The notes under the pieces were generated by a model that worked only from the letters and a program-made list of their open reading frames with translations, had not been told where the DNA came from and ran no database searches. From UHGV virus genome UHGV-1421865: a DNA stretch of 64,000 nt; one strand, written 5' to 3'. The translations under genes were made by a program, and so were the position numbers. Numbering within the stretch: the first letter of the stretch is position 1; each line of letters opens with the position of its first letter. Shown here in pieces: positions 19,396 through 38,371 of this stretch. Source of the stretch: a virus.

Positions 19396-19429
19396 AAACT
19401 ATAAAATTAGATTGAAATATAAAGAAAAA

Positions 19430-19462: not shown

Positions 19463-19464
19463 GT

Positions 19465-19938
19465 TTAGTAAAATACCAGACCCAGTGATCTGTCGATGAT
19501 ATAATTACTGTCGTTGATAGTTTGTTCGTTCGGTGCTCTGGTATCTGAAAGTAGCTTCTTGAAATTGTCCGATTCGTTATTGACACTGATATTTACATCG
19601 TCGTCTTTATCTGGTGTAACAAATTCAGATGCTTTCCGTGTCTTTTTGATAAATTCCATAACAGTCTCTACACTTGGTATATAAAGAATATCGTCTTCAT
19701 TTATCTCGAACGGATTACTAATACCGTTTACCTTACAAATTATATCGGCATAATCGTCTTCACCGTACATTGCCAAGGATATAAGATCAGGACGGGCGAC
19801 ATAATGTGCATTCACTACTATCGGTTGTCCCGACATTATATCTAACGGTATAACGTTATCTGTTAGTAGGTCGATAAATTCTTCACCGTCGACATTAACA
19901 GTTGCTTTGGTGTCCAAAATCTTATATTCTAACGCCAT
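19465..19938 (-). CDS. Hypothetical protein, 157 aa
   Basis: ORF with a clean start and stop. No recognisable domain. Confidence 0.45.
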   Translation of the reverse strand: MALEYKILDTKATVNVDGEEFIDLLTDNVIPLDIMSGQPIVVNAHYVARPDLISLAMYGEDDYADIICKVNGISNPFEINEDDILYIPSVETVMEFIKKTRKASEFVTPDKDDDVNISVNNESDNFKKLLSDTRAPNEQTINDSNYIIDRSLGLVFY

Positions 19939-19950
19939 TGTTTTATATTA

Positions 19951-20424
19951 TCATTTCACTACTAACGTAGACGGCTCACCTACTACACTTTCAGACACTG
20001 TTTCTGTGGCTTTATGATCTTCAGGTTCAGGCACAACGGGAGACGACAAGACACTGTCATGTACGTCAGCTTTATGATCCTCAGGTTCAGGTGCTGTGAG
20101 AGAAGTTACTACAGTGTCATGTACATTGGCTTTATGTTCTTCTGATGCTACTGCCGCCACGGTTACTGTCTCTCCAGCAACGTCGCCTAAAACGGGCACT
20201 GTAGGTGTCACTAAACTGTCACCATCAGTATCTGTTAATGTAGTGTCAATAGCTTTTCTAAATGCAGCAGCTTCTGCATTGGCATCTGTTTTACCGACAG
20301 ACCATTTGATAAAGTCGTGTAGTGCCTTTTGTTCGTCTGTTTTAGGATCCAGTGCTGTGTTAAAATCGGCTTCACTGATGTGTACAAGACCGGTTAGATC
20401 AAGAAATTTTTGGTATAGTGTCAT
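19951..20424 (-). CDS. Hypothetical protein with three tandem ~18-aa repeats (PEPEDHKA[D/N]VHD[S/T]V)
   Basis: Repeat units are visible at both protein and DNA level (ttcaggttcaggcaca...tgtcatgtac repeated). Confidence 0.45.
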   Translation of the reverse strand: MTLYQKFLDLTGLVHISEADFNTALDPKTDEQKALHDFIKWSVGKTDANAEAAAFRKAIDTTLTDTDGDSLVTPTVPVLGDVAGETVTVAAVASEEHKANVHDTVVTSLTAPEPEDHKADVHDSVLSSPVVPEPEDHKATETVSESVVGEPSTLVVK

Positions 20425-20510
20425 TATCTTAAAGTATATATACGTTACTATATAAATAATCCGAATACGCCTGATTTTTGATATATAAGATAAATTATAG
20501 TATAAACAAG

Positions 20511-22901: not shown

Positions 22902-22915
22902 TTTAGAAGAAGTCA

Positions 22916-23055
22916 GAAAATCTGCCCTCTAACGCACGATTTTTCTTTGACCTTGGTACTACTAAGGTCGCTACATTTGAGTGCGCCAGAGAGCCTAAAA
23001 AGTGCCTTTACGTGGACGTCAGATATTTACACATCAGTATGCAAAACAGAAACGT
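22916..23055 (+). repeat. Conserved structured intergenic element, copy C
   Basis: aaaatctgccctctaacgcacgatttttctttgaccttggtactactaaggtcgctacatttgagtgcgccagagagcctaaaaagtgcctttacgtggacg...acagaaac. Followed by a terminator. Confidence 0.6.
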
Positions 23056-23082
23056 CAAAATAACCAACCCAACATAACAAAA

Positions 23083-23130
23083 ATGCCTGTCGAAGGAACT
23101 TGTTGATTCCTTTAGACAGGCATTTTTATA
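23083..23130. terminator. Rho-independent-type hairpin
   Basis: aaaaatgcctgtcgaaggaacttgttgattcctttagacaggcatttttatatttt. Confidence 0.55.
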
Positions 23131-23160
23131 TTTTGTTGTTTGTCACAGATATAAAGCTAT

Positions 23161-23300
23161 AAAAACTTGCCCTCTAACGCACGATTTTTCTTTGACCTTG
23201 GTGTTGGTAAGGTCAACTAATTTGAGTGCGTCAGAGGGGCTAAAAAGTGCCTTTACGGACGTGTGATGATTCTGTACGTCGGTGTACAAAACAGAAACCA
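23161..23300 (+). repeat. Conserved structured intergenic element, copy D (tandem with copy C)
   Basis: aaaaacttgccctctaacgcacgatttttctttgaccttggtgttggtaaggtcaactaatttgagtgcgtcagaggggctaaaaagtgcctttacggacgtg...acagaaacc. Followed by a hairpin at about 23323-23372. Confidence 0.6.
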
Positions 23301-23522
23301 CCCAATCAGCCCCAATATATAACAAAAATGTCTGCCGAGGAACGAACAAGAAACCCTCGACAGACAAATAATAGCAATTCTTAAGTCAGGATAAGTAATA
23401 ACTTTCCTAACACCCATGATGTTGTTATTAGTCATCTAGATATACGTTGATCTATATCAGTTTTACGTGATAATGGTACGATTCTATTGCCTCTGCAGCG
23501 ACAATAGACATTCTCATTTTAG

Positions 23523-23595
23523 TACGGCCACTGGGATTCAAACCCAGGTAGTCCCTTTAGAAGAGGGATATTCTATTCAATTGAATTATAGCCGC
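23523..23595 (-). tRNA. tRNA-Arg (anticodon UCU), reduced D-arm
   Basis: Manual fold of the reverse complement: acceptor GCGGCTA/TGGCCGT (two G-U pairs), anticodon arm TCCCT-CTTCTAA-AGGGA, T-arm CTGGG-TTTGAAT-CCCAG. Confidence 0.45.
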
Positions 23596-23600
23596 ATGTA

Positions 23601-23703
23601 AGTGTGGTATCTACAAGAATTGAACTTGTGACACACGGATTTTCAGTCCCACGCTCTGGTCAACTGCGTTGACTTACTTTGTCACCAACTGAGCTACATC
23701 ACC
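23601..23703 (-). tRNA. Atypical or degenerate tRNA-like element (5' half GGTGATGTAGCTCAGTTGGT; Phe-like CTGAAAA loop), with a 26-nt hairpin inserted in the D-loop
   Basis: The 5' acceptor/D-arm and the T-arm (ACAAG-TTCAATT-CTTGT) are canonical. The acceptor 3' strand does not pair and the anticodon stem has only 3 bp, so this is a possible pseudo-tRNA. Confidence 0.25.
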
Positions 23704-23705
23704 GA

Positions 23706-23779
23706 TGGTTGCCTTGCAAGGATTCGAACCTCGACTATTTGAACCAAAATCAAATGTGCTAAACCATTACACCACAAGG
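23706..23779 (-). tRNA. tRNA-Gln (anticodon UUG), CCA encoded
   Basis: Acceptor TGCCTTG/CAAGGCA perfect; D GTGT..GCAC; anticodon TTTGA-TTTTGGT-TCAAA; T-arm CGAGG-TTCGAAT-CCTTG; 3' ACCA. Confidence 0.7.
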
Positions 23780-23811
23780 CAAGACAATTATTGTGTACTA
23801 TACACAATCAG

Positions 23812-23885
23812 TCACGCCGGTGGGACTCGAACTCACAACTCCTTGCTCCCAAAGCAAGTACCTTAACCGATTAGGCTACAGCGTG
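23812..23885 (-). tRNA. tRNA-Pro (anticodon UGG)
   Basis: Acceptor CACGCTG/CGGCGTG; anticodon CTTGC-TTTGGGA-GCAAG; T-loop TTCGAGT. Confidence 0.65.
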
Positions 23886-24022
23886 GGATCTTATAGTGTT
23901 CATGACCACATATAAGATCTGTACGATGAAAGGCTACACATCGCCATGTAAGATTTGTATTTTATACAAATCACCGACCGTTAGGCTATATTTTTATAAA
24001 AAATAGCTGTCGGGCACTGTCG

Positions 24023-24109
24023 CGGAAGGTGCAAGATTCGAACTTGCGGTACAGTTACCTGTACATCTCCTTAGCAGGGAGACGGTTTAAGCCACTCACC
24101 CAACCTTCC
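24023..24109 (-). tRNA. tRNA-Ser (anticodon GCU), type II with a long variable arm
   Basis: Acceptor GGAAGGT/ACCTTCC; anticodon TCTCC-CTGCTAA-GGAGA; variable-arm hairpin TGTACAGGTAACTGTACC; T-arm GCAAG-TTCGAAT-CTTGC. Confidence 0.65.
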
Positions 24110-24118
24110 TAAAAATAG

Positions 24119-24195
24119 TCCCAGGCCAGGATTCGAACCTGAATTTCGTCTCCAATGAGACGTGTATTAGCCTTTATACTAACTGAGTAATATAG
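24119..24195 (-). tRNA. tRNA-like element (T-arm CAGG-TTCGAAT-CCTG present; anticodon arm not resolvable)
   Basis: Canonical T-arm and tRNA-cluster context, but an internal hairpin CGTCTC-ATTG-GAGACG (4-nt loop) sits where the anticodon arm should be. Not fully foldable by hand. Confidence 0.3.
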
Positions 24196-24197
24196 TT

Positions 24198-24272
24198 GCG
24201 GGAGGGGGACTCGAACCCAACCGATCTTCAGCTTATGAGGCTGACGAGATGCCATCTTCTCTATCCCGCGAT
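24198..24272 (-). tRNA. tRNA-Met/Ile2 (anticodon CAU)
   Basis: Anticodon arm TCAGC-CTCATAA-GCTGA; T-arm TTGGG-TTCGAGT-CCCCC; acceptor GCGGGAT/CTCCCGC. Confidence 0.6.
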
Positions 24273-24280
24273 ATTTTGAT

Positions 24281-24580
24281 TTAGTTTTCCATTTTTGGTT
24301 TATAAGATACTGTCTTAATTTCTTCACCTTCAAAAGCATAGCAATTAACATCACAATCAGAAGCCAGCATGTATTCACTGTATACATTAGATAAACCTTC
24401 AATACCCAAAATACCGTCTTCTAATTGAAAGTAAGAAGTGCTGGTTTCGTACCATCTATGACGGTTTATATCAATGTTACTTGCTAATTGTGTTTCGTAG
24501 TCAATTACACTTTCTGCATCGTCTATATAATAGAGTTCTTCAGAATTATTTATTCGTTCTATTGCTTCTTTTAGTTTCAT
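24281..24580 (-). CDS. Small hypothetical protein (99 aa); paralog of 39260..39618
   Basis: Shares an EDGILGIEGL / KDGILGLRG block and an AFEG motif with the ORF at 39260..39618. Confidence 0.4.
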   Translation of the reverse strand: MKLKEAIERINNSEELYYIDDAESVIDYETQLASNIDINRHRWYETSTSYFQLEDGILGIEGLSNVYSEYMLASDCDVNCYAFEGEEIKTVSYKPKMEN

Positions 24581-24593
24581 AATTAAATTGAAT

Positions 24594-24770
24594 TAAAAAC
24601 AAATGTCGTCATGCCAATTGCTTAACATATCACTACGGAATTCTTTCGCATCATCTAAATACTCAGACAAAAACGAAGACACTTCCTTAAAGTTGCTTAT
24701 GTCACCATTAAAGGGTACGTTAAGTACATCTTGACAAAATCTAACGGCAGCTTTTTGTCTTTCTGTTGTC
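24594..24770 (-). CDS. Small hypothetical protein (58 aa), below the track cutoff
   Basis: Manual translation gives MTTERQKAAVRFCQDVLNVPFNGDISNFKEVSSFLSEYLDDAKEFRSDMLSNWHDDICF, then a stop. It lies immediately upstream of 24281..24580 on the same strand. Confidence 0.3.
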
Positions 24771-24773
24771 ATA

Positions 24774-24848
24774 AGTTCGCTCGCTGGAACTCGAATCCAG
24801 GACTCCTTGATTAAAAGTCAAGTGCTCTACCAACTGAGCTACGAGCGA
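24774..24848 (-). tRNA. tRNA-Lys (anticodon UUU)
   Basis: TCGCTCG-TA-GCTCAGTTGGTAGAGC-A-CTTGA-CTTTTAA-TCAAG-GAGTC-CTGGA-TTCGAGT-TCCAG-CGAGCGA-A; acceptor perfectly paired. Confidence 0.75.
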
Positions 24849-24869
24849 TTCTATAAACTATACAAGTTG

Positions 24870-24943
24870 CGGACAATGCAGGATTCGAACCTGCGACCTA
24901 CTGATTAACAGTCAGCCGCTCTAACCATCTGAGCTAAATGTCC
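24870..24943 (-). tRNA. tRNA-Asn (anticodon GUU)
   Basis: GGACATT-TA-GCTCAGATGGTTAGAGC-G-GCTGA-CTGTTAA-TCAGT-AGGTC-GCAGG-TTCGAAT-CCTGC-ATTGTCC-G. Confidence 0.7.
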
Positions 24944-24957
24944 ATACTCTATTATAG

Positions 24958-25029
24958 AGCTTCCTGTCAGAGTCGAACTGACAACCTCTTCATTACAAGT
25001 GAAGCGCACTGCCATTGTGCTAAGGAAGC
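24958..25029 (-). tRNA. tRNA-Thr (anticodon UGU); no encoded CCA
   Basis: Acceptor GCTTCCT/AGGAAGC perfect; anticodon CTTCA-CTTGTAA-TGAAG; T-arm TGTCA-GTTCGAC-TCTGACA. The 5' end abuts the tandem 40-bp repeats. Confidence 0.7.
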
Positions 25030-25150
25030 GAATGCTTCCAGTATATCACGTTAGTGACATTAAGGAAGCGAATGCTTCCAGTATATCACGTTAGTGACAT
25101 TAAGGAAGCGAATGCTTCCAGTATATCACGTTAGTGACATTAAGGAAGCA
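25021..25150 (-). repeat. Three perfect tandem 40-bp repeats (plus a partial fourth) directly upstream of tRNA-Thr; each unit holds a GGAAGC-ATTC-GCTTCC hairpin and a TATACT -10-like hexamer
   Basis: taaggaagcgaatgcttccagtatatcacgttagtgacat x3, then taaggaagca. The first 10 nt of each unit equal the tRNA-Thr 5' end. The minus-strand reading of a unit is GCTTCCTTAATGTCACTAACGTGATATACTGGAAGCATTC. Confidence 0.8.
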
Positions 25151-25215
25151 GGTGTAGTCTAAATTAGACTTTGATTGTGGTGTAAAATCACGCTAATTAA
25201 ACTACATTCATTGAG

Positions 25216-25290
25216 GGTGTCCTATGGGATTCGAACCCATGACCTTCAGAACCACAATCTGACGTTCTAACCGTCTGAACTAAGGACAAC
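25216..25290 (-). tRNA. tRNA-His (anticodon GUG) with an extra 5' G(-1)
   Basis: G-TTGTCCT-TA-GTTC-AGACGGTTA-GAAC-G-TCAGA-TTGTGGT-TCTGA-AGGTC-ATGGG-TTCGAAT-CCCAT-AGGACAC-C. Confidence 0.7.
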
Positions 25291-25388
25291 ATGATGGTGG
25301 AAAAACGACTGCGCCCCACCTACGCAAGGTCTTCAAAGACCACCGACCGTGTTTTATAGTTAACTATAAAAGTAATCAGGTACTGTCG

Positions 25389-25487
25389 TGGACCAGGTAG
25401 GACTTGAACCTACGACTCTGGAAAACAAACTAGAGAAAGGAGGTTAAACTAGTGTGAATTCGGCTCTGGCCATCTGAGCTACTGGTC
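25389..25487 (-). tRNA. tRNA with a ~26-nt insertion between the D-arm and T-arm (intron-like or disrupted); identity unassigned
   Basis: Perfect acceptor GGACCAG/CTGGTCC, D-arm GCTC-AGATGGCCA-GAGC and T-arm GTAGG-TTCAAGT-CCTAC. However, 49 nt (expected ~23) lie between them, containing the hairpin ACTAG-(TTTAACCTCCTTTCT)-CTAGT. The 3' half resembles tRNA-Met 28636..28709. Confidence 0.4.
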
Positions 25488-25564
25488 CGGTTGACGGTCA
25501 AACGCTCCACACCGTCGGGTGGATGTCTGTACTAAACAGACAACAAACAGTATGCTTGAATCAG

Positions 25565-25640
25565 AGGCCGTTGTGCTTATTGACAGTGTTATAGGATTCG
25601 AAACTACATCTCTTGATTCAAAACATCAAGGCTCTACCAA
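25565..25640 (-). tRNA. tRNA-like gene (anticodon loop GTTTTGA, possibly UUU; acceptor pairing imperfect)
   Basis: D-arm GCTC-AAAGATTGGTA-GAGC; anticodon arm TTGAT-GTTTTGA-ATCAA; T-loop TTTCGAAT. The acceptor could not be paired cleanly by hand. Confidence 0.35.
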
Positions 25641-25923
25641 TCTTTGAGCTAGACACCGCGCATGTAGTTTTTCTATGCCCACATAAACTACAAAAATGTT
25701 CTGTTTGCTATGTATTCTTTGAACACGTAGTGTTCATACGTTGAACAGCTGTCTGTTTGAGGTTAATTCTGTGCACAGAAACATAGCCTTAACATGGGTC
25801 TTTACAATATGATTTGCAACGCAATACGATTCGTACTAAGCACGACACCAGTATTGTTCTATTTATAATAATAGCGAACTTTGTGAGGTAAATCAGCGTA
25901 ATTTACAAGAAAAATCAGTAAAG

Positions 25924-26271
25924 TCAATCATTAAATTCATAATTTAGTACCTTACGGACTTTTTTATAAGTGCTAATTACTATCTGGTCGTTATAGACCC
26001 AATAGGTTTCCTCTTCATTGTGAGGGGGGATTCCACTGTTTATTTTCTTTAGATAAAAGAGAATGAATATCAGCAGCGTAACGAAACAAAGGTAGTGTAC
26101 GTTACCGATAAGCAACAACAGTATATGCCACAGTTTAACTCGGAAATTCCTATTAGGGTACCTGTGTACATTAAAACCTCGGTGGTCTACATCGAAATCG
26201 TAGTACTGTGTATTGAACAACACACGTAGTTCTATTAGAAACAGAACAATACCTGGTACATACCACATCAT
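25924..26271 (-). CDS. Small membrane protein (115 aa)
   Basis: Hydrophobic helices IVLFLIELRVLF and LWHILLLLIGNVHYLCFVTLLIFILFYL. Confidence 0.45.
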   Translation of the reverse strand: MMWYVPGIVLFLIELRVLFNTQYYDFDVDHRGFNVHRYPNRNFRVKLWHILLLLIGNVHYLCFVTLLIFILFYLKKINSGIPPHNEEETYWVYNDQIVISTYKKVRKVLNYEFND

Positions 26272-26302
26272 ATTTTAAGAACTTAATTAAACTTCAACGT
26301 AT

Positions 26303-26500
26303 TTAGTCATAGCCTTTATAGACTCTTTTGAACTTGTGAACGTCACAGTCTTCAAAGACGACTCTGTTTCTGTGTCTGATGTACCGATTCAATTGATTCT
26401 TCAACCATTTTCTTTCACCGGCCTTGATGTACTTTCTTTTCTTGTGGTCTTTATTGTAAGGCAATAAAGTTGAACACAGTTGTAGTCTACGTAATGCCAT
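26303..26500 (-). CDS. Small highly basic protein (65 aa)
   Basis: K/R-rich (KDHKKRKYIKAGERKWLKNQLNRYIRHRNR). Possible nucleic-acid binder. Confidence 0.35.
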   Translation of the reverse strand: MALRRLQLCSTLLPYNKDHKKRKYIKAGERKWLKNQLNRYIRHRNRVVFEDCDVHKFKRVYKGYD

Positions 26501-26505
26501 ATCTA

Positions 26506-26862
26506 CTAATATAATCCAGCATGTCGCTTAATAGGTTCATAATACAACTCGTCTACTCGTTCGTTGCTGTACTTATCGTTTATTGCGACAACCAGCTTAC
26601 CATCTTTTTCTGAAACAACATACTCAGCAATGGTCCGACCGAACACATAAAGTACGATGTGTAGGTTTTTATAGTTCGAATGATCGAACATCACTTCAAT
26701 TTCATCGAGCAGGGCACATTCATTATGATACAGATACGGCAATGTTTCTACGAAATCGATGATGCTATCGGTATTGGTGAATTTTGAATATGCGCAAAAC
26801 ATAACAAACTCGTCTCTGTCACTATCGACAGGATAACCTGACTTCATTTCTGTGTACAACAT
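26506..26862 (-). CDS. Hypothetical protein, 118 aa
   Basis: ORF with no HuH/Y1 transposase motifs. Checked because of the adjacent TnpB. Confidence 0.45.
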   Translation of the reverse strand: MLYTEMKSGYPVDSDRDEFVMFCAYSKFTNTDSIIDFVETLPYLYHNECALLDEIEVMFDHSNYKNLHIVLYVFGRTIAEYVVSEKDGKLVVAINDKYSNERVDELYYEPIKRHAGLY

Positions 26863-26994
26863 ACTGTGTAATTTTTACTGGTCTTGTTTCTAACTTGATT
26901 TGTTATATATTATATAGTCTACTTTATGAATAAAATCAACTTATGTAGTACCAGAAGCGGGACTCATCGTACATGAAAATCTAAATCATTACAT

Positions 26995-27095
26995 TTAGTT
27001 TTCACTTCTTGCTTCAATCTATCACTACTAATTGTAATCAATATCACAATCCCATAGGAGGATAGTCCACAAGCGTAAATTCGGTACTACGAATA
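26995..27095 (-). repeat. IS200/IS605-family right-end-like sequence downstream of TnpB; second copy at 38395..38470
   Basis: tagttttcacttcttgcttcaatctatcactactaat...agtccacaagcgtaaattcggtactacgaatacct, with the sub-terminal hairpin TTCG-GTACTA-CGAA. The 38395 copy lacks a 31-nt internal segment. Confidence 0.4.
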
Positions 27096-27111
27096 CCTAC
27101 TAGTTTTGTTC

Positions 27112-28251
27112 TTATACTGCACTTATCCTACGACCCTCGTAGAGGATATTTAGTGCTGCATTGTAATCTCTATCATGGTTTGTGCCACATTTAGGACAAC
27201 ACCAATAACGGTCTTGTAACTTCAAGTCATTGTGTACATAACCACATTGTGAACAAGTCTTTGAGCTGGGATAAAATCGATCAATAAGTACAACCTTCTT
27301 GTCGTTTTGTAAAGCCTTAGTTGATAGCACAGTCTTGAACTTAAAAAATCCAACTTCTTGGATTGCCTTGGCAAGTTTATGATTTTTCATCATCCCTTAT
27401 ACATTCAAGTCTTCCATGTAGACAGTATCATACTGTGACAATAACTCATTTACTACAGAATGTATATAGTTTTCCTTCTTATTCGTAATAGTCTCAAACA
27501 CTTTCGCTATCCTCTTACACTGTTTATAGAAGTTGTTTGAACCTTTACGTTTCCTCGACAACTGTCGTTGTAGCTTTACAAGTCGCTTTTCTTCTTTATT
27601 ATAGAAATGTTTGTTGTCAAATGTAGTGTCATCTGATGTTATAACAAAATCCTTAACACCTAGATCGATACCGACATCACGACCTGTTTTATTGAACTTA
27701 GTAAGTTCGTTATCATTCATATCAATAAGAATAGATAAGAAGAAATTCCCACTCTTGGTTTTCGATAAGGTTGCACTTCTTATATTGTTCTTATATCTAC
27801 GCAATCTTGCCAAGTACAAATCAGAACATCTAAATGATATGTCTTTTAATTTGGTTGTAAGTGTTATCTTACGTGTCACAAATGTATTTTTCTTGGATAT
27901 TGTACCTTTCGGGAACAACGCAGATTGGTTATTCTTCTTCGACTTGAACTTTGGAAACCCATTATGTTGTTTGAAGAATTTTTGGTAGCCACTATCCATT
28001 TGTCTAATAGCTTGATTCATTATCTTTGTATTCTGTTCCTTCAACCAAGCATATTGTTCATCTTTCAATAACTCATGATGAAAATGTTTGGATAGTTGAG
28101 TTGTTCCAAGATTTGTTTTATCTGTGTTATACGCTTCTTGTTTACGAGCAAGCATGTAGTTATAAACAAAACGATAACACCCAAGCACACTATTTAGTAC
28201 CTGTTCTTGTGTTTTATTTGGATATAACCTTATTTTGATTGCTCGTAACAT
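27112..28251 (-). pseudogene. tnpB: IS200/IS605-family TnpB (OrfB) interrupted by a single in-frame TAA at 27397-27399; no tnpA present
   Basis: N-terminal RLYPNKTQEQ...RFVYN; RuvC-I DVGIDLGVKDFVITSDD; zinc finger CSQCG...CPKCG; RuvC-III DRDYNAALNI. The minus-strand reading ...GAC TTG AAT GTA TAA GGG ATG ATG AAA... shows the two track ORFs 27397..28251 and 27112..27393 are the same frame separated by one stop codon. Confidence 0.85.
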
Positions 28252-28293
28252 TGATTTCCTTATTTAACTACTTGATTGTTTACTGTTACTATT

Positions 28294-28382
28294 TGGTGCC
28301 CGAAGTGGGGGTCGAACCCACACGAACATTACTGTTCAAGAGATCCTAAATCTCTCATGTATACCAATTTCATCATTCGGGC
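28294..28382 (-). tRNA. tRNA-Leu (anticodon UAG), type II, CCA encoded
   Basis: GCCCGAA...anticodon arm AGAGA-TTTAGGA-TCTCT, variable arm GAACAGTAATGTTC, T-arm GTGGG-TTCGACC-CCCAC, TTCGGGC-ACCA. Its 3' trailer is duplicated at 29197..29240. Confidence 0.7.
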
Positions 28383-28635
28383 AACTAAGTATGGTTATAA
28401 CGTTACCAACGCAGCTCACTAAGACTAATTCGCGACTTAGCAAATAATGATTACTCCGAGATTTGGAATGTATAATTACTCTATCTTCTACGGCTGTATG
28501 ATAGAAACCTAATTAGTTTAGGATACTCTGGGTCCCAATGTGCCCAAATTTTGCATACTCTTATCGTACGTTATATATGTTAATAGTATGCGAAAAACAT
28601 ATACACGCCAGTTTCTAGTGACTTGGGTACTGTTG

Positions 28636-28709
28636 TGGACCAGGTAGGGATTGAACCTACGACCTTCGCCTTATGAGGGCGCCGCTCTGTACCACTGAGC
28701 TACAAGTCC
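28636..28709 (-). tRNA. tRNA-Met (anticodon CAU)
   Basis: GGACTTG-TA-GCTC-AGTGGTACA-GAGC-G-GCGCC-CTCATAA-GGCGA-AGGTC-GTAGG-TTCAATC-CCTAC-CTGGTCC-A (two acceptor mismatches). Confidence 0.6.
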
Positions 28710-28714
28710 TTATT

Positions 28715-28790
28715 CAAGACAGTATAGGATTCGAACCTATGACGTTGGTATAATCACCTTAAGCATTCGTCCACTCTGCCAAGCTGTCTT
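28715..28790 (-). tRNA. tRNA-like gene, identity unassigned
   Basis: Acceptor AAGACAG/CTGTCTT and T-arm ATAGG-TTCGAAT-CCTAT are clear. The D and anticodon arms were not resolvable by hand. Confidence 0.35.
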
Positions 28791-28809
28791 GTTATAAATG
28801 TGTATTAGT

Positions 28810-29193
28810 TTAGTAAGTAAAAGTAATACTATAGATATAATCGTCGTTATAGTTTTCAAGAATCTCTTGAAATACAGTTAAGACTTTCTTCACATCCTTA
28901 AAATAATTATTATTGTATTTTGACGGTACAAATAAGAAATGATCTGTTGTCGGTAACAATTCAGTACACATGCTGTGATCTTCTAATACAAGTGTACAAT
29001 CCTCAACTAAATACTCAATTTCTTCTTTTGTAATTGGTGTATTATGAATACAATTTTCTCCGTACGGATGTCCAGCGAAATACCTATAAAGAAAGTTAAT
29101 ATCAGTAAGAAGACTAATATCTTCATATTCAGAACCCATACCCGTACGGTGTTCTTCTTTAAGTCCTCTACCAATCTCAATTTTCAAACTCAT
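28810..29193 (-). CDS. Hypothetical protein (127 aa) embedded in the tRNA cluster
   Basis: ORF immediately downstream (minus strand) of the duplicated tRNA-Leu trailer. No recognisable motifs. Confidence 0.45.
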   Translation of the reverse strand: MSLKIEIGRGLKEEHRTGMGSEYEDISLLTDINFLYRYFAGHPYGENCIHNTPITKEEIEYLVEDCTLVLEDHSMCTELLPTTDHFLFVPSKYNNNYFKDVKKVLTVFQEILENYNDDYIYSITFTY

Positions 29194-29239
29194 AACCTAC
29201 TTGATTGTTTACTGTTACTATTTGGTACCCGAAGTGGGG

Positions 29240-29326
29240 GTCGAACCCACATGGTCTACTGACCAAAAGATTTTAAATCTTTCATGTATACCGATTTCAT
29301 CATTCGGGCATTGTATATACTATAAT
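29240..29326 (-). tRNA. tRNA-Leu (anticodon UAA), type II, CCA encoded
   Basis: GCCCGAA...AAAGA-TTTAAAA-TCTTT...GTGGG-TTCGACC-CCCAC-TTCGGGT-ACCA. Paralog of 28294..28382. Confidence 0.7.
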
Positions 29327-29468
29327 CCGTCCCCAACCGCTATTATAGTATATGATTCATTACAAATTTATGGCTTCTGACTGGACGGTTTTGTAATTAC
29401 GCAGGAAATGTTCTTCATCTTAGGAAGACAAATCCCGAAACTGAATGTATTTATACATCAGCGAGTAG

Positions 29469-29540
29469 TATTCAGGCTGGGACTTGAACCCAGATTGGAT
29501 GTGTATAAGACATCTAGCCTAACCTTTAACTGACCTGAAC
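29469..29540 (-). tRNA. tRNA-Ile (anticodon UAU, reads AUA)
   Basis: Acceptor GTTCAGG/CCTGAAT; anticodon arm GATGT-CTTATAC-ACATC; T-arm CTGGG-TTCAAGT-CCCAG. Confidence 0.55.
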
Positions 29541-29716
29541 GTGCAACCTACTTTAGAGTAGGTCTTGATTGCGTTACATACTTGATGTGTTACATATCTA
29601 AAATAGTACACTTTATGAGAAAAATCAATGTAGGCTCTAAAAATTTATTGCCATATTGTTTTGTTGTAACTCACATTCATAATAATAGTCTATATTAGTA
29701 GCAAAATCAATACAGT

Positions 29717-30511
29717 CTACACATTTTGTTGTTTTGTATCGAAATAAATTGCCTTCACAACACCAACGTATTGCTGTGCAAGCCGGTACGCATGCTCACT
29801 AACGGTCTTTTCGTGCTTCAAAAATTCCTCCGTAGTCAAACTACCCAACCAGTCGAGTGACCACATCATATTTGATGCACTATACGTTACAACATGCTTA
29901 CGTTCATCATCTTCATTTACAACAAAGGTTATAAACGACTTATTACTGTCGATAACGGCATCGCCGCAGATAATATCGTCAGAACCTAAAACAACGTCCC
30001 CGTAGATTACAACATCATCTTCGACGTAAGTAAATCCAGTAAGCATAGCGTGTCCGTAAATGTTGACATTGTCACCGACATATACATCACCGCTAAGACT
30101 AGCATTACCGTGGATATGTGCGCGGTTACTGACAGTAACTCTATCTGATATATTAGCATTTTCATATACCTGTACAAAATACTGTAGGATTACATCACCG
30201 AATACCCTTGCATTGTCTTTAATAATAACATTCTCACTACATTTTACACTGCCGCCGATATACGCATTGCCGAAAACACAAACATTATCTCTTAACGTCG
30301 CATTTTTCTCTACCTTAGCATCGTCGTACACCTTGGCGTCATTGTATAGCCAACATAAGCCGTCCTGGGATAGATTTTCCTCTGTTTGAATCCACCCACC
30401 CTTATCACCCGACTTGACATCGTTGAAGTCTTTTACAGCCTGAACGCGGTACAGCGTACGACCTTCATGCCGAATAGTCTCGTCTACCAGCATTACATAT
30501 TTTCCTCCCAT
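29717..30511 (-). CDS. Left-handed beta-helix / hexapeptide-repeat-like protein (264 aa); paralog of 12624..13076
   Basis: Repeated [VI]xGxAx[IV] units: NVCVFGNAYIGGSVKCSENVIIKDNARVFGDVIL...GNASLSGDVYVGDNVNIYGHAMLTGFTYVEDDVVIYGDVVLG. Confidence 0.5.
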   Translation of the reverse strand: MGGKYVMLVDETIRHEGRTLYRVQAVKDFNDVKSGDKGGWIQTEENLSQDGLCWLYNDAKVYDDAKVEKNATLRDNVCVFGNAYIGGSVKCSENVIIKDNARVFGDVILQYFVQVYENANISDRVTVSNRAHIHGNASLSGDVYVGDNVNIYGHAMLTGFTYVEDDVVIYGDVVLGSDDIICGDAVIDSNKSFITFVVNEDDERKHVVTYSASNMMWSLDWLGSLTTEEFLKHEKTVSEHAYRLAQQYVGVVKAIYFDTKQQNV

Positions 30512-30684
30512 ATCTTATTATTTAATTTCAAAATCGTTCAATTGAACGAGTAAATCACTCATAATGCTATCTAATTCACTAAACGCGTCCGGTGAAATTA
30601 GTCCCCTATTATCTTGTAAACAGACATTTAGTTGTTGTGCACTTTCTTTTATTGAGTTGAATAGCCCTTGTTTGTACATATTAA

Positions 30685-31041
30685 TCACTTGAATTTTGGT
30701 TTATATGCATCATCTATATGACAATTATCGAACATAAAACGATGGTATTTTACATTGCTGACGTCCCACTTAGACAAGTCACAGCTGAATTCTTTACAAC
30801 CAGAAAACATTTTGTCCATGTTCGTAACGTTAGAGACGTCCCATTCGTCGATTTTGATGTTTCTAATACCAACCCAAACAAATAAAAACGACATGTCTGT
30901 AATCAACGACGTATCAATGAAATTGAGATCAGCATCTGGACCTTGTCGCTTAATTTCTTCCATTATAATAGAAGTAAGTTCATCTTTTGATGTAGGCGTC
31001 AATGTTGCCGATTTTGTATTTGATGTGATATGTATTGCCAT
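30685..31041 (-). CDS. DUF285-type repeat protein family member (118 aa)
   Basis: Family N-terminal module MAIHITSNTKS...ELTSIIMEEIKRQGPDADLNFIDTSLITDMSFLF, then IDEWDVSNVTNMDKMF and CDLSKWDVSNV repeats. Confidence 0.7.
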   Translation of the reverse strand: MAIHITSNTKSATLTPTSKDELTSIIMEEIKRQGPDADLNFIDTSLITDMSFLFVWVGIRNIKIDEWDVSNVTNMDKMFSGCKEFSCDLSKWDVSNVKYHRFMFDNCHIDDAYKPKFK

Positions 31042-31059
31042 TACTATTTAATCTAAATA

Positions 31060-31560
31060 TCATCTATATCCAAATAACTGTCTCATAATCCTATTTAATT
31101 CATCAACACGGTCAGACGACATTGCGTCATTGTTAAATTTTGGTTTATATGACTCCATTATAGGACAGTTATAGAACATACCAGACATATCTGTCACATT
31201 AGAAACGTCCCACTTAGACAAGTCACGGTTGAATTTGATACAACAATCAAACATGTTTTCCATGTTAGTCACATTAGAGACGTCCCACTTAGACAAGTCA
31301 CAGTTGAATTTTAGACAACCACAAAACAGGTGGCGCATATTTGTCACATTAGAGACTTCCCACTGGTCTACTTTAATGTTACCAATGGTAATCATACCAA
31401 ACAACATAGACATGTCTGTTATAAGCGACGTATCGATATGATTCAAATCGGCATCCGGACCTTGCCGCTTAATTTCTTCCCAGATAATGTCTCTGAGTTC
31501 GTATTTTGTTGTTGGTTTTATTGTTAATGATCTCGCATTTGATGTAATGTGAATCGGCAT
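31060..31560 (-). CDS. DUF285-type repeat protein family member (166 aa)
   Basis: MPIHITSNARS...KRQGPDADLNHIDTSLITDMSMLF, then three WDVSNVTNM..MF repeats. Confidence 0.7.
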   Translation of the reverse strand: MPIHITSNARSLTIKPTTKYELRDIIWEEIKRQGPDADLNHIDTSLITDMSMLFGMITIGNIKVDQWEVSNVTNMRHLFCGCLKFNCDLSKWDVSNVTNMENMFDCCIKFNRDLSKWDVSNVTDMSGMFYNCPIMESYKPKFNNDAMSSDRVDELNRIMRQLFGYR

Positions 31561-31576
31561 AGTAAAACTGTGTTAA

Positions 31577-31933
31577 TCAATAAAATTTTGGTTGCAGTTC
31601 CGGTGTCATATTAGGACAATCCTCAAAAATACCATCATATCGTTCTACATTGCTAACATCCCAACCAGACAAGTCACACTTGAAATTTTGATTTGTAAAC
31701 ATGGCGATCATATTCGTGACATTGGATACGTTCCATTCGTCTATCTTAATGTTTCCAATCTCAATCCACCAAAACAACATAGACATATCTGTAATAAGCG
31801 ATGTATCGATAAAGTTCAAATCAGCATCGGGACCTTGACGTTCCAATTCTTGTTCTATAATAGACCTCAGTTGTTTTTTCGATGTTGGTTTCAGTCTTAA
31901 TAATTTGCTGTTAGATGTGATGTGAATTGGCAT
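31577..31933 (-). CDS. DUF285-type repeat protein family member (118 aa)
   Basis: MPIHITSNSKL...ERQGPDADLNFIDTSLITDMSMLF...WNVSNVTNMIAMF...WDVSNV. Confidence 0.7.
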   Translation of the reverse strand: MPIHITSNSKLLRLKPTSKKQLRSIIEQELERQGPDADLNFIDTSLITDMSMLFWWIEIGNIKIDEWNVSNVTNMIAMFTNQNFKCDLSGWDVSNVERYDGIFEDCPNMTPELQPKFY

Positions 31934-31935
31934 GG

Positions 31936-32392
31936 CTACATAAATTTAGGTTTTAGATCATCTGTCATCTTGTCACAAAACGTGAACATACCTGCTGCAT
32001 AAATCAAACTATTATTAGACCAACGAGACAGGTCACAATTGAGATTAGAACAACCATAGAACATCTCTGACATAGTGAACCTCGTGAACTTCGGTAAATT
32101 GTACATTGGATGTATTCCAAAGAGACAAATCACAGTTAAAATACTTACAATCGTAGAACATGCCGTGCATATCAGTGACATTACTGACATCCCATCCATC
32201 GATTTCAATGTACCTTATATTTTTCCTATAAAATAAGCATTCCATATTATCTATTTCAGATACATCAATGAAATTCAAATCAGCATCCGGACCTTGACGT
32301 TCCAGTTCTTGTTCTATGATAGTCTTGAGTTCATCTTTTGTCGATGGTTTAACTATACATGATTTTGTTGTAGATGTGATGTGAATTGCCAT
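31936..32392 (-). pseudogene. Frameshifted DUF285 family member (the track splits it into 32045..32392 and 31936..32208)
   Basis: The N-terminal part MAIHITSTTKS...WNTSNV and the C-terminal part MSEMFYGCSNLNCDLSRW... are in different frames. The junction carries a ~22-nt insertion with the 9-bp tandem duplication GAAGTTCAC-GAGGTTCAC. Confidence 0.6.
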
Positions 32393-32413
32393 TTGTTCAC
32401 TGTTTATACTACA

Positions 32414-32722
32414 TCATTTCTCAAAAACACATTCAATACCGTATGCATCTGCAGCCTGGTGTTCAATCACACAACCACGTGCTTTCTCCCAACCTTTACA
32501 AAAGTAAACAAGGTCGGCCTGTGCCATCAATTTCAACGACTCTCCCAAGTACAACAATCCTTTGTTCGGTACGTTAGAATTTTCAAAGTCATTACCAAAG
32601 TAGGATTCCAGTACAGTCCAACCTATAGACTCATACCGTTCTTTGACACGATTGCGCACCGCACTGATTTCGATATTAGAAAGACCGTTCATCGGTTGAC
32701 TGATAAATACTTTCTTTTTCAT
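32414..32722 (-). CDS. Small protein, possibly DUF4406 / nucleoside 2-deoxyribosyltransferase-like (102 aa)
   Basis: MKKKVFISQPMNG...GESLKLMAQADLVYFCKGWEKARGCVIEHQAA resembles DUF4406-type phage proteins. Tentative call. Confidence 0.4.
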   Translation of the reverse strand: MKKKVFISQPMNGLSNIEISAVRNRVKERYESIGWTVLESYFGNDFENSNVPNKGLLYLGESLKLMAQADLVYFCKGWEKARGCVIEHQAADAYGIECVFEK

Positions 32723-34239
32723 TTGTTATTTTTTAATTTAATTAGACTATCGATATACGTAAGTAGTTCAGAATCAATACGTTGACCTGTATACTTAAAC
32801 TCGTCGCGTTGCTTTTTCATACGACGCTGCATTTTCTTGAACGTATATTCTTTGTCATTTTTGTACACATTCCCGTTCACCGTAACGAAATAATTCGGAT
32901 CTTTTCTGAACTTTTCTAGTTCCTCTTCGTCGAACTTTTCGCCATTTTCGTCGATTACAATGTTGTCGAACGACAGATTACAAGTTTGGATCTGTGACGG
33001 GTAAAGTGACGCGAAGTCATAACACACGTTCCATGTGTAGTGTCCGGAGATGCACTCACAGAAAGCACCTTTGTACGGTTTCTTTTCTCGAACGGTATGA
33101 TCCCAGTTGTATACAATTACTTTATTGTTATCGTAAAACTCATAGAACATGTTCGCATTGGTAATGGCTACCTGTCCGAAAGCATCTTTCAACGTAATCA
33201 TTGTACTGGTCGACATAGAACATGGTACTTCCAGTGACTTCAGTTTTCTATGAATCAGCTGTACCAACAAACTGTCGACAGCATTATAGAAATAATACCA
33301 TTCTACATCACGCTCGTAGAGTTGTTGCAACGAACCGTCGTACTTGATCTTATGTGCGTCGACTGCCCTGGACGATACATAATCCAACGAAAACGACTCG
33401 TACGGTACCAAAATTCTGTCGTACTGTTTACAGATTTCCATATAATCCAACACAACACTATGTTGAGGCGCCGGCAGGCTGTACGACGTACCGTCGAGTT
33501 CTTTCCATGCAATCTTAGTGACTTCCCTTGTCGGTGACGCATTATAGATCATGTTCTTGGCTGTAGTAGCACCGAACAGTCGCTTAATGCGTGTCGTAAG
33601 ATACATCCAGTCGAAACGATATGAATTCCACCCTGCAAGTACCGGTGTATTCGGAACTACCTTATTAAAGAATTCCTCTAACAATTCCTCTTCTGAAGAA
33701 AATGCTTTATAATATACTTTAATATAATCTTCTACTTTCTGTCCCGACTGTTCTACAATCGACATTGCAAATTTGTTGTCGCGGATCCATGAAATATATC
33801 GTTCTTTCAGTAAGTTGATAGACTCCTGCGATAGTCGATGTAGACCGTATACGATACAACTCAAATTATGTCCTACTACAGAGATAGCGGTCACTCGTTG
33901 GTCTGCGACTTCGGGGTCAGGGAACTCGTCCGATACCTCTGTTTCAATATCGAATGTATATAGATTAGGATAATTGTTCTCAAACAACGGAGCGAACTCC
34001 TCCTTGTTATTATAAATGTATTCTAATATATCAAACGTATTAGGGTTGTACTCAGATGTCTTCTTATTTACACGTTTTGCCCTTTGTCCGTCCCAGGTAT
34101 CGTACTCCCCGTCCGGGTCATATTCGTACGACGGCATATAACTAAGGTACTTAGTGATAAAGTCGCGTTTACCTTCTTTTGTAATATATGAAATACTGAG
34201 TTTTTTGTCTCGCTTATTCCAGGTTCTATCTAAGATCAT
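32719..34239 (-). CDS. Family B DNA polymerase, N-terminal half only (T4 gp43-like: N-terminal and 3'-5' exonuclease domains through polymerase motif A), 506 aa; polymerase motifs B and C absent
   Basis: Exo I YTFDIETEVSDEFPDPEVADQRVTAIS (compare T4 gp43 FDIEV..FPEP...IDAIT), Exo II WNSYRFDWMY, Exo III YNAVD and polymerase motif A CYDFASLYPSQI. The ORF stops ~85 aa after motif A. No KxxxNSxYG or YGDTDS is found downstream on this strand. Confidence 0.8.
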   Translation of the reverse strand: MILDRTWNKRDKKLSISYITKEGKRDFITKYLSYMPSYEYDPDGEYDTWDGQRAKRVNKKTSEYNPNTFDILEYIYNNKEEFAPLFENNYPNLYTFDIETEVSDEFPDPEVADQRVTAISVVGHNLSCIVYGLHRLSQESINLLKERYISWIRDNKFAMSIVEQSGQKVEDYIKVYYKAFSSEEELLEEFFNKVVPNTPVLAGWNSYRFDWMYLTTRIKRLFGATTAKNMIYNASPTREVTKIAWKELDGTSYSLPAPQHSVVLDYMEICKQYDRILVPYESFSLDYVSSRAVDAHKIKYDGSLQQLYERDVEWYYFYNAVDSLLVQLIHRKLKSLEVPCSMSTSTMITLKDAFGQVAITNANMFYEFYDNNKVIVYNWDHTVREKKPYKGAFCECISGHYTWNVCYDFASLYPSQIQTCNLSFDNIVIDENGEKFDEEELEKFRKDPNYFVTVNGNVYKNDKEYTFKKMQRRMKKQRDEFKYTGQRIDSELLTYIDSLIKLKNNK

Positions 34240-34316: not shown

Positions 34317-34883
34317 TTAATGCCTAGTACGAATCTCAAATTGAGGATAGTATTCCTCTGGCATCTTATAACAAGCTGCAAACATTAGAAGCGCTTCAAC
34401 CTTATTGGATATATACCAACCAGACAAATCACAATTAAAGTTTTCACACATATAGAACATATTAGACGTGTCTGTCACATTCGATACATCCCAACTGGAC
34501 AAATCGCAATTAAACTTCCAACAATTACTGAACATGCCGCTCATGTTTCTAACATTAGAGACGTCCCATTCGTCTATTTTGATATTTCGGATGTCAAGTG
34601 AATTAAATAAATTAGACATGTCCGTGATCTTCGATGTGTCGATGAAATTGAGATCTGCATCTAGACCTTGATGATACAGTTCTTGTTCTATCAACGAACG
34701 TAACTCATCTTTCGTCGCAGGTCTCACTACAAGCGATTTCGTCTGAGATGTGATGTGTATTGACATGCTGATCAAATTTAGGATAATATTCAGGTAGCAT
34801 CTTAGTATACTTGTCAAACATGAATTTGTTGTGCTGAACGTTCGATGTGTTCCAACCAGACAAGTCTGATTTGAATTTTTCAC
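34317..34883 (-). CDS. DUF285-type repeat protein family member (likely start at ATG 34766, MSIHITSQTKS)
   Basis: The family N-terminal module begins at residue 40 of the track ORF. Repeats IDEWDVSNVRNMSGMF, CDLSSWDVSNVTDTSNMF and CDLSGW. It overlaps the 3' end of 34705..35409 by 62 nt. Confidence 0.65.
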   Translation of the reverse strand: MKNSNQTCLVGTHRTFSTTNSCLTSILRCYLNIILNLISMSIHITSQTKSLVVRPATKDELRSLIEQELYHQGLDADLNFIDTSKITDMSNLFNSLDIRNIKIDEWDVSNVRNMSGMFSNCWKFNCDLSSWDVSNVTDTSNMFYMCENFNCDLSGWYISNKVEALLMFAACYKMPEEYYPQFEIRTRH

Positions 34884-35409
34884 AACAGTAGAACATCGCA
34901 GACATATCCCTCACATTGGACACATTCCAATAGGACAGGTTACCGTTGAATTTTCTACAATTAAAGAACATGCACCACATACTACGTACATTAGAAACGT
35001 CCCAATAGATCAGGTCGGAATTGAAGATGCCACAATTGTAAAACATGTGTGACATGTTGGTGACATTGGACACATTCCAACTAGACAAGTCGCTGTTGAA
35101 AAATAAACACCAATCAAACATGTGTGACATATCCGTCACTTTCGATACATCCCATTTAGACAGATTACAATCTAAACAGGTACAATGACAGAACATCCAA
35201 GACATGTTTGTCACGTTGCTGACATCCCACTCGTCGATTTTGATGCTTCTGGGATTGAGTAACCAAAATAAATTAGACATGTCTGTAATCAGCGATGTGT
35301 CGATATGGTTCAAGTCAGCATCCCAACCTTGACGTTCCAGTTCTTGTTTTATGACAGAACGTAACTCGGCTTTTGTAGTTGGTCTCACTGTTTTAGTACT
35401 ACCATTCAT
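34705..35409 (-). CDS. DUF285-type repeat protein family member (234 aa, 6-7 repeats)
   Basis: MNGSTKTVRPTTKAELRSVIKQELERQGWDADLNHIDTSLITDMSNLF, then WDVSNVTNMSWMF, WDVSKVTDMSHMF, WNVSNVTNMSHMF, WDVSNVRSMWCMF, WNVSNVRDMSAMF and WNTSNV. Confidence 0.7.
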   Translation of the reverse strand: MNGSTKTVRPTTKAELRSVIKQELERQGWDADLNHIDTSLITDMSNLFWLLNPRSIKIDEWDVSNVTNMSWMFCHCTCLDCNLSKWDVSKVTDMSHMFDWCLFFNSDLSSWNVSNVTNMSHMFYNCGIFNSDLIYWDVSNVRSMWCMFFNCRKFNGNLSYWNVSNVRDMSAMFYCCEKFKSDLSGWNTSNVQHNKFMFDKYTKMLPEYYPKFDQHVNTHHISDEIACSETCDER

Positions 35410-36209: not shown

Positions 36210-36719
36210 TTATTTTTCAAAAACAATATACGCTATTATAGGAATGACTATGGCGCCTATAAATAATAAAACTAAAGTAGCCAGAACCCAATAAAACTCA
36301 TCTTTACTATCATTGCCTGAATTATGATCTAAGTCAACAAAGTCGGTATACCAACGAGGTAGTTTAACAATGGCATTACAATCACGGAACATGTTTGTCA
36401 TTATCGCAACATTGTTAGTGTCCCAATTGTCTAAACCGGCACCCGTAAACCTATCACAACCGTTGAACATGGATTCCATCGTCTGCACATTGCTAACATT
36501 CCAACTGTCGATTTTGATGTCACGTACATCAAGGCAACAGAACAACCAAGACATGTCGGTGATCTCTGATACGTCAATATGATTCAAATCAGCATCCGGA
36601 CCTTGACGTCGTAGTTCCTGACGTATTAGTTCCTTCAATTCATCTCGTGAAGTAGGCCGCCCGTATGCTGGTTCTGGAACATATAAAGGTCTAGTTTTTG
36701 ACGTGATGTGTAGCGCCAT
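36210..36719 (-). CDS. DUF285-type family member with a C-terminal transmembrane anchor (169 aa)
   Basis: MALHITSKTRPL...RRQGPDADLNHIDVSEITDMSWLF...WNVSNVQTMESMF, then a C-terminal hydrophobic helix WVLATLVLLFIGAIVIPIIAYIVF. Confidence 0.65.
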   Translation of the reverse strand: MALHITSKTRPLYVPEPAYGRPTSRDELKELIRQELRRQGPDADLNHIDVSEITDMSWLFCCLDVRDIKIDSWNVSNVQTMESMFNGCDRFTGAGLDNWDTNNVAIMTNMFRDCNAIVKLPRWYTDFVDLDHNSGNDSKDEFYWVLATLVLLFIGAIVIPIIAYIVFEK

Positions 36720-37612: not shown

Positions 37613-38371
37613 CTAGAGGCCACAGAGGGATCTCAATACGGTTTTGAATTCACCCGACATATTACATTTGTCACTGAGACACCAGTCGATGTAGCTCGGA
37701 TCGATTTTATGAATTTTTTGTACGTCACAACTCCGATATTTACCGAAATTGAACACCACTGCACCGTCGCGGAATGTCTTCAACGAATTGTCGGTAACGA
37801 TAATCGGTACCATTAAGTTATCGGTTTGCTCTTTTTGTTTATTAAATACTTCAAACGTAGCTTTCACGTCCGAAAGTGCGTCGTGGGCGTTTAGTCCGGA
37901 CTCTTCCATTGAATGGCCTGTGTATTTTTCATAAATACCTTCCAGGTCGGTCGGATTGATTCTGTTGTTAATCAAGAAAGAGTCGAAAATAACACGGTCA
38001 GTGAAATTAATAGACTTACCGTATCGTTTGAGTTCCTCGTTCAAGAATGGAATATCAAAGCTATTGCCATTGAATGTCAATACAGCATTCTCTTTCGGAT
38101 TACCGAAGAATTCAACAATTTGGTCTGCGACTTCTTCAAAATGGGGGTATTGTTCCAATTGTTTCGGTGTGATACCGTGTTTGAAATATGCACCCATACT
38201 AATCTTATAAGGTTGTACAGGTTGGATTTTAAGGTCGAGTTCATCAACTACCTCATTTGTTTTCGCATCGTATTTAATAGCCGAGAACTGGATAATCTGA
38301 TCCGTCTCACGATACAGTCCGGTACATTCAATGTCAAATGCGACGATATACTTGTAATTTTGACTTTTCAT
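37613..38371 (-). CDS. DEDDh 3'-5' exonuclease (DnaQ/RNase T-like; T4 DexA-like)
   Basis: Exo I IVAFDIECTGL; Exo III-like H-x4-D block GLNAHDALSDV. Confidence 0.75.
   Translation of the reverse strand: MKSQNYKYIVAFDIECTGLYRETDQIIQFSAIKYDAKTNEVVDELDLKIQPVQPYKISMGAYFKHGITPKQLEQYPHFEEVADQIVEFFGNPKENAVLTFNGNSFDIPFLNEELKRYGKSINFTDRVIFDSFLINNRINPTDLEGIYEKYTGHSMEESGLNAHDALSDVKATFEVFNKQKEQTDNLMVPIIVTDNSLKTFRDGAVVFNFGKYRSCDVQKIHKIDPSYIDWCLSDKCNMSGEFKTVLRSLCGL

Follow-up and report, generated by a model that had tools for sequence, protein, structure and literature searches.

Must the two halves of a replicative DNA polymerase be encoded side by side? The question is raised by a stretch of 64,000 nucleotides from the virus genome UHGV-1421865 (referred to throughout as the window), in which an open reading frame (ORF) of 506 amino acids (aa) resembles the front part of a T4 gp43-like family B DNA polymerase (PolB) and ends soon after polymerase motif A. 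An earlier note, made from the sequence alone, had read this as a split replicative polymerase with its catalytic half at a distant locus, and a matching second gene, encoding 410 aa, is found on a contig of the same phage. We consider it very likely that these two genes (here termed the N piece and the C piece) encode a single replicative PolB of the T4/RB69 type, split at the tip of the fingers, with its halves about 35.9 kilobases (kb) apart and most likely assembling non-covalently into one enzyme. The phage is a gut jumbo phage, represented by contigs of at least 187-207 kb. This kind of split is already known, and annotations of related jumbo phages partly record it; the novelty lies in a dispersal over 36 kb and across transcription units, and in how frequent such dispersal is in a large family of gut phages.

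The two polymerase pieces and the break between them

The N piece comprises an N-terminal domain, a 3'-5' exonuclease (Exo I-III), the palm motif A and the first finger helix. Pfam places DNA_pol_B_exo1 on aa 86-288 (E 2.6e-15), with a DNA_pol_B match that covers only profile positions 18-135 of 453, and phmmer aligns aa 88-481 with residues 105-485 of RB69 gp43 (E 1e-33). Exo I (DxE) is present as FDIETE with D97 and E99, Exo II (Nx3FD) as N205 with F209 and D210, and Exo III (Yx3D) as Y318 with D322, while motif A (DxxSLYPS) consists of D408 followed by FASLYPSQI. D408 and Y413 are invariant in the alignment of relatives, across which Exo I-III and motif A show no variation. The ORF is collinear with the first ~510 aa of intact homologues of 926 aa and ends in ...IDSLIKLKNNK, its stop lying 89 aa past motif A. 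A six-frame motif scan of the window detected no credible motif B or C, and tblastn searches of the window with the C halves of the polymerases of phages PAU (gp110), MA9V-1 (MA9V1_138) and PTm1 (ORF-239) gave no partner, the best match (E 0.09) falling inside a Dam methylase gene. The description in the earlier note, namely a gp43-like ORF with three exonuclease motifs and motif A, an early end, and no second half within 64 kb, is borne out by these analyses.

Judged from the sequence, the TGA of the N piece is a genuine stop, with predicted translational coupling to the downstream DUF4406 gene, and not a frameshift. Recoding of this stop codon was considered and ruled out: the other genes are normal in genetic code 11, and the frame beyond the TGA is not polymerase sequence. 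The identical 506-aa protein is called on nine metagenomic contigs from independent samples, three of them 0.2-1 Mb long and one of them NODE_12 of ENA ERZ772909 (187,286 bp). A megablast search with 10 kb of the window gave no match in the INPHARED phage collection, and a search of IMG/VR with the N piece alone did not find this phage.

The partner was traced from the window edge. Looking up the gene at 2441..3643 led to NODE_12, of which the part reaching 10 kb past the left window end (L045) overlaps the window over 13,643 bp with 100% identity and no gaps; the equivalent look-up at the right edge yielded only a 7.5-kb contig. The C piece lies 3.2 kb outside the left edge, on the same strand as the N piece and on the same contig, and contains the motifs B and C and the thumb that the earlier note had expected of a distant half. 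It bears a faint Pfam PolB mark, aligns with RB69 residues 526-827 and has motif B (K52 followed by KLAGNGAYG), motif C (FSDTDS, with D133 and D135), a KKKKY motif, the thumb region and a hydrophobic C-terminus (...QLELF). From the stop of the N piece to the start of the C piece NODE_12 has 35,863 bp, against 35,903 bp when counted in window positions. Repeat-copy variation at ~25.1 kb accounts for the extra 40 bp: at ~25061-25109, in a short repeat within a tRNA array, the window has 40 bp more than NODE_12, and otherwise the two differ by one mismatch in 19 kb. Two other routes did not lead to the partner: it was absent among the 120 listed matches to the mid-region of an unsplit relative (P0053), and the genes beside the C halves of relatives, when compared with the window, gave only unrelated shared genes (a methylase and a 93-aa ORF).

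That the two ORFs are parts of one polymerase is indicated by their collinearity with intact enzymes. Together they amount to 916 aa, compared with 926-928 aa for the intact polymerases of IMG/VR relatives (L025, L026, L041 and L044), with which they share 55-56% identity in an alignment of 912 columns. Set against such intact homologues, the C piece begins exactly where the N piece ends: the junction ...IDSLIKLKNNK / MEFSPDIK... stands opposite the continuous ...IDNILNHSNDHIEFHQDIV... of these homologues, and nothing is lost or added. Each piece has its own ATG and stop, and no active-site residue of either half varies among relatives of 55-61% identity. As aa 481 of the N piece corresponds to RB69 residue 485, with the N piece ending at aa 506, and aa 15 of the C piece to RB69 residue 526, the alignment places the break at about RB69 residues 510-512. 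In the RB69 structure, we take these residues to be the tip between the two long finger helices (fingers ~469-572).

Could the break be an artefact, produced for instance by chimeric assembly or by a sequencing error that shifted the frame? The sequences were assembled from metagenomes, and NODE_12 breaks at a repeat near 53 kb of the window, but the context of the N piece recurs in several independent assemblies, including the contigs of 0.2-1 Mb, and its stop takes the form of an ATGA overlap with the downstream gene. Moreover, an equivalent gene structure is found in isolated, fully sequenced phages, and separation by more than 10 kb in independent relatives, so that we regard the chance of an artefact as close to negligible.

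We also considered that the halves might be joined after expression into a single chain, by a split intein or through a group I intron or RNA trans-splicing. The clade is rich in such elements: some relatives have a split intein at motif C together with a free-standing ORF, and in the Jug gut jumbo phages group I introns are numerous and split polymerase genes occur (PMC12880540). In the present phage, however, polymerase sequence collinear with intact homologues stands on both sides of the break, and a total of 916 versus 926 aa leaves no room for an intein. No intein is placed at the break, because no sequence is missing or added there; the junction alignment shows neither intein blocks A/B where the N piece closes nor blocks F/G where the C piece opens, and Pfam detects no intein domain in the N piece. 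At gathering thresholds, Rfam, which does not fully cover the group I subtypes, matches only tRNAs in the window and in L045. Splicing in cis is implausible because of the 36-kb distance and the opposite-strand genes in between, and the N-piece stop is coupled to the start codon of the following gene. Taken together, we hold joining into a single chain to be extremely unlikely.

A further explanation is that another polymerase replicates the genome, the 506-aa ORF being either a gene remnant in decay or an exonuclease that proofreads on its own. Most of the genome lies outside our view, and a separate DEDDh exonuclease (RNase_T/ExoX-like; 37613..38371, minus strand), located 3-4 kb upstream of the N piece, shows that the phage has additional exonucleases. 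Against such an origin, motif A and the finger helix are conserved together with the exonuclease motifs in more than 100 clusters of proteins of the same length, the same contig holds a matching C piece, its motifs B and C intact, that begins precisely at the break, and the protein is found unchanged on all nine contigs from independent samples. A remnant or lone exonuclease is therefore very unlikely.

Several points weigh against a single enzyme made from the two genes and should be kept in mind. Of a genome at least 187 kb long, the scan for PolB covered ~71.5 kb, and a second, intact PolB could conceivably lie elsewhere in it. The record that supplied the C piece is a contig of this phage and not the source record of the window, from which it differs by the 40-bp insertion or deletion at ~25.1 kb. 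That the N and C proteins associate is expected by analogy with published systems, as opposed to experiment; their production at the same time is presumed, and the regions upstream of the two cistrons have no obvious promoter-like motif in common.

Table 1. Coordinates of the polymerase pieces and adjoining features (window positions unless a contig is named; Ev., evidence).
Feature	Position	Strand	Ev.
PolB N piece, 506 aa	32719..34239	-	ORF list, Pfam, phmmer, alignment to intact homologues
Polymerase motif A, DFASLYP	32998..33018	-	Six-frame motif scan; sole polymerase active-site motif of the window
ATGA overlap, N piece TGA / DUF4406 ATG	32719..32722	-	Coordinates and sequence …AACAAATGAAAAAG…
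PolB C piece, 410 aa	L045:16829-18061 (NODE_12 ~130019-131251; window-extrapolated -3185..-4417)	-	Translation, RB69 alignment
DUF4406 gene, 102 aa, directly downstream of N piece	32414..32722	-	PF14359, E 1.9e-7, 31.8 bits
Four DUF285 genes downstream of N piece	30685..32392	-	ORF list, Pfam marks (L004 11848-13555)
Two DUF285 genes directly upstream of N piece	34317..35409	-	PF03382, E 7.5e-58 for 34705..35409
In-window part of the ~35.9-kb interval between the polymerase cistrons	1..32718		

The interval and the gene neighbourhood

The earlier note had seen a DUF4406 gene followed by five DUF285 genes downstream of the N piece, and had suggested that the split lies at the insertion point of this block and that the block separates the two halves. 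The DUF4406 gene is there as described; of DUF285 genes, four are called, and the first of these looks frameshifted (ORFs 32045..32392 and 31936..32208 overlap). The proposed insertion point was not upheld, since DUF285 genes occur on both sides of the N piece, with further copies at 36210..36719 and at 59-63 kb, and since relatives split at the same site carry other genes after it: a GT92 glycosyltransferase gene in L007 and DUF7487 genes in L009 and L048, as opposed to DUF4406 and DUF285 in the window. The N piece thus sits inside a DUF285-rich region and not beside a single inserted block. Nor are the halves separated by one accessory block: the interval of ~36 kb contains about 45 genes, 16 tRNA genes in two arrays, an interrupted TnpB gene and a 13-kb block on the opposite strand.

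Within the window, the interval holds a hexapeptide-repeat gene, the tRNA arrays, TnpB, and Dam, NrdG-like and SHMT genes, and the block on the plus strand, at 9.6-23 kb, includes a gene for a 1601-aa protein. The tRNA arrays, at 23523-25658 and 28294-29540 (minus strand), comprise 16 genes according to Rfam and 14 according to ARAGORN. Two calls made by Rfam only (23605-23703 and 25389-25488) are about 100 nucleotides long, which is unusual, and may contain insertions, and one ARAGORN call (24118-24188) has a 2-nucleotide anticodon. Between the two arrays, the TnpB/OrfB_IS605 gene (27113-28251, minus strand) has an in-frame TAA at 27397-27399, at a position that we take to be Lys in homologues (...MEDLNV[K]GMMKN). 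The Cas12f1-like TNB part continues in frame past this TAA, and the gene is either a fresh pseudogene or one that is read through.

Genes for nucleotide metabolism and DNA modification are located at 4008-6731, 35680-36210 and 47628-48893 and include Dam, an NrdG-like radical SAM protein, SHMT, DHFR and a Dcm-type C5 methylase; with DUF4406 added, the set may point to DNA modification or to a pyrimidine pathway that depends on folate. At 37048-37476 (minus strand), also 3-4 kb upstream of the N piece, a PDDEXK_5 protein is encoded, and PDDEXK_5 proteins are counted among the free-standing homing endonucleases in Jug phages. A 2045-aa ORF at 39885-46022 (plus strand), with long hydrophobic, repeat-like segments, has no entry among the precomputed Pfam hits. 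Finally, a 230-bp inverted repeat of 98% identity (53164-53393 and 58475-58704) encloses a 5-kb segment with a gyrase B-like gene and falls where the assembly is broken into NODE_12 and NODE_3332.

Relatives, polymerase architectures and the direction of change

The nearest isolated relatives of the N piece, at 28-31% identity, come from jumbo and mega phages: Sphingomonas phage PAU, Chryseobacterium phage MA9V-1, Tenacibaculum phages PTm1 and PTm5, Lak phages and uncultured huge phages. A T4-type portal gene adjoins the N piece in relatives. In PAU (gp105/gp110), MA9V-1 (135/138) and PTm1 (ORF-236/239/241), all at 28-30% identity to the N piece, the break also lies in the fingertip loop, within ~5-15 aligned residues of the one described here, and the pieces are of similar size, with N pieces of 487-497 aa and, in PAU and MA9V-1, C pieces of 404-425 aa. 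The halves in these three phages are, however, only 2-2.5 kb apart with 2-4 genes between them, and the present interval is about 15 times longer. In PTm1, the C part is itself split, and motif C carries a split intein accompanied by a Vsr endonuclease gene; the present polymerase has no intein.

In the wider family, the 120 protein clusters listed for the N piece, of 1124 matches, are almost all stand-alone N pieces of 507-518 aa (54-59% identity), and the 120 listed for the C piece, of 466 matches, are mostly stand-alone C pieces of 411-425 aa. In one gut relative (Ga0310690_10000452), N and C are separated by 2.9 kb that hold two DUF7487 genes. No partner was found within 10 kb of flank, on the side examined, for the N pieces L007, L009, L029, L034 and L039, nor for the C pieces L014, L065 and the one on the NCBI contig of P0280, and on IMG/VR contig 3300001525_000092 (148 kb) the N piece lies at 125.4-127.0 kb and the C piece at 0.8-2.1 kb on the same strand. 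With a single exception, the split gut relatives examined have their halves more than 10 kb apart; dispersal is common, and not peculiar to the present genome. DUF7487 genes were observed directly after N pieces or before C pieces (L009:11539-13693, L048:11568-14421, L065:8852-9994), and may mark the original insertion in the fingertip or act as recombination substrates. Synteny around PolB is too weakly conserved to reconstruct how the halves separated.

Other members of the family are organised differently. Intact enzymes of 915-928 aa are encoded at seven IMG/VR loci, related genomes being where the earlier note had proposed to look for an unbroken gene; no evidence was found that the DUF285 block gave rise to the split. 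In still others (L024:10001-14551 and L043), the gene runs through the fingertip and breaks at motif C with a split intein. Here, the first part ends in intein blocks A/B and the 322-aa last piece opens with blocks F/G, the order being YSDTD / S (SxxxSLLLIK)...TGDHS, a free-standing 415-aa ORF, and then the 322-aa piece with ...DILVHN / SVYTTYG. This fractured-gene arrangement is also known from PTm1 and from phage MIJ3 (PMC6892783). In addition, stand-alone middle pieces of 254-266 aa (P0121-P0240) are common; they begin where N pieces end and carry the N part of the intein, and judged from these sequences the polymerase may be in three pieces in many gut relatives. The family therefore contains intact, two-piece adjacent and two-piece dispersed forms as well as forms with a split intein at motif C, at 55-60% identity.

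The direction of change was addressed with bootstrapped neighbour-joining trees of the N and C parts, rooted with PAU, PTm1 and MA9V-1; these are rough trees with distant outgroups. In the N-part tree, the genes unsplit at the fingertip form a single clade in 95% of replicates and lie two or more nodes deep within split lineages in 100%, and in the C-part tree the unsplit genes are nested among split lineages in 98% of replicates and are non-monophyletic. As a lead only, the tree topologies suggest an old split, with later fusion or repeated switching. One possible, if doubtful, history is that the split is ancestral to the jumbo clade (the gut family with PAU, PTm1 and MA9V), that the cistrons then drifted apart and that at least one sublineage was re-fused to a 926-aa gene; if true, such re-fusion would be a rare documented healing of an essential split gene. 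More speculatively, an open fingertip may have been kept because it helps to accept modified nucleotides. This idea arises because split Pfu polymerase accepts bulky gamma-phosphate analogues and PAU DNA is heavily modified, and because the genes of the window include those for SHMT, DHFR, Dam, Dcm and a DUF4406 protein. The DUF4406 family is presumably related to deoxyribosyltransferases.

Assembly of the enzyme and comparison with known split polymerases

In the model that we favour, the N piece would supply the N-terminal domain, the proofreading exonuclease, the palm motif A with its metal-binding Asp and finger helix 1, and the C piece would supply finger helix 2 with motif B, the palm motif C, the KKKKY motif, the thumb and the hydrophobic C-terminal tail. 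The two cistrons sit in different transcription units, and the 506-aa and 410-aa proteins, by analogy with the systems discussed below, would form a non-covalent heterodimeric polymerase with a catalytic site built from both chains. If so, an essential replicative polymerase could work from two genes that are neither adjacent nor co-transcribed, and dispersed polymerase genes would need their amounts and timing to be matched by other means. For the annotation of gut jumbo phages, a practical rule follows: distant ORFs of ~510 aa ('DNA polymerase exonuclease') and ~415 aa ('faint PolB') should be read as one enzyme, which in some relatives comes in three pieces with a split intein. The intact, adjacent, dispersed and three-piece forms offer a natural series for the study of split-enzyme assembly and split-gene evolution. 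The surprise is a moderate one, since the type of split is known.

Fractured genes with split inteins were reportedly described by Dassa et al. in 2009. An example is the PolB of Pseudomonas phage MIJ3 (PMC6892783), and the relatives L024 and L043 match this arrangement at motif C; the break in the present phage, in contrast, has no intein blocks, and protein splicing is for this reason not expected there.

The closest likeness is to the gp43A/gp43B (43A/43B) polymerases of T4-like phages, to which the earlier note had already pointed, naming those of Aeromonas phages. Natural fingertip splits are found in phages 133, 44RR, 31, 25 and 65, with cistrons 2 bp to 3 kb apart (PMC3061061), and the gp43A and gp43B proteins of phage 25 co-purify and have polymerase activity (PMC2988022). 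As Petrov et al. 2006 is summarised in PMC2988022 and PMC3061061, these are T4/RB69-type PolB enzymes cut between the two finger helices, with the exonuclease and motif A in the N part and motifs B and C and the thumb in the C part, each with its own start and stop and without loss of sequence, as in the present phage. The same summaries place an untranslated spacer or a seg-like endonuclease gene between the cistrons, compared with ~35.9 kb and ~45 genes here, and the present phage belongs to a gut jumbo phage family whose enzymes share only ~30% identity with the T4-like ones.

An engineered counterpart is Pfu polymerase, which, when split near the fingertip and rebuilt from separately made fragments, is fully active and acts like the wild type, its C fragment requiring the N fragment for folding (PMC3061061). 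Co-purification with regained activity has been shown only for the phage 25 proteins and for split Pfu. The activity of the latter supports the proposed mechanism of assembly, with the difference that split Pfu is an artificial, ATGA-coupled bicistronic construct from a hyperthermophilic archaeon. In its dispersal, the present polymerase is most readily compared with the PolB of Methanothermobacter thermautotrophicus, also a family B enzyme, which is encoded, as PMC3061061 outlines it, by two genes at distant loci, ~85 kb apart; by the same outline, that enzyme is archaeal and not of the T4 type, and it is split in the palm, ~83 residues C-terminal of the fingertip position.

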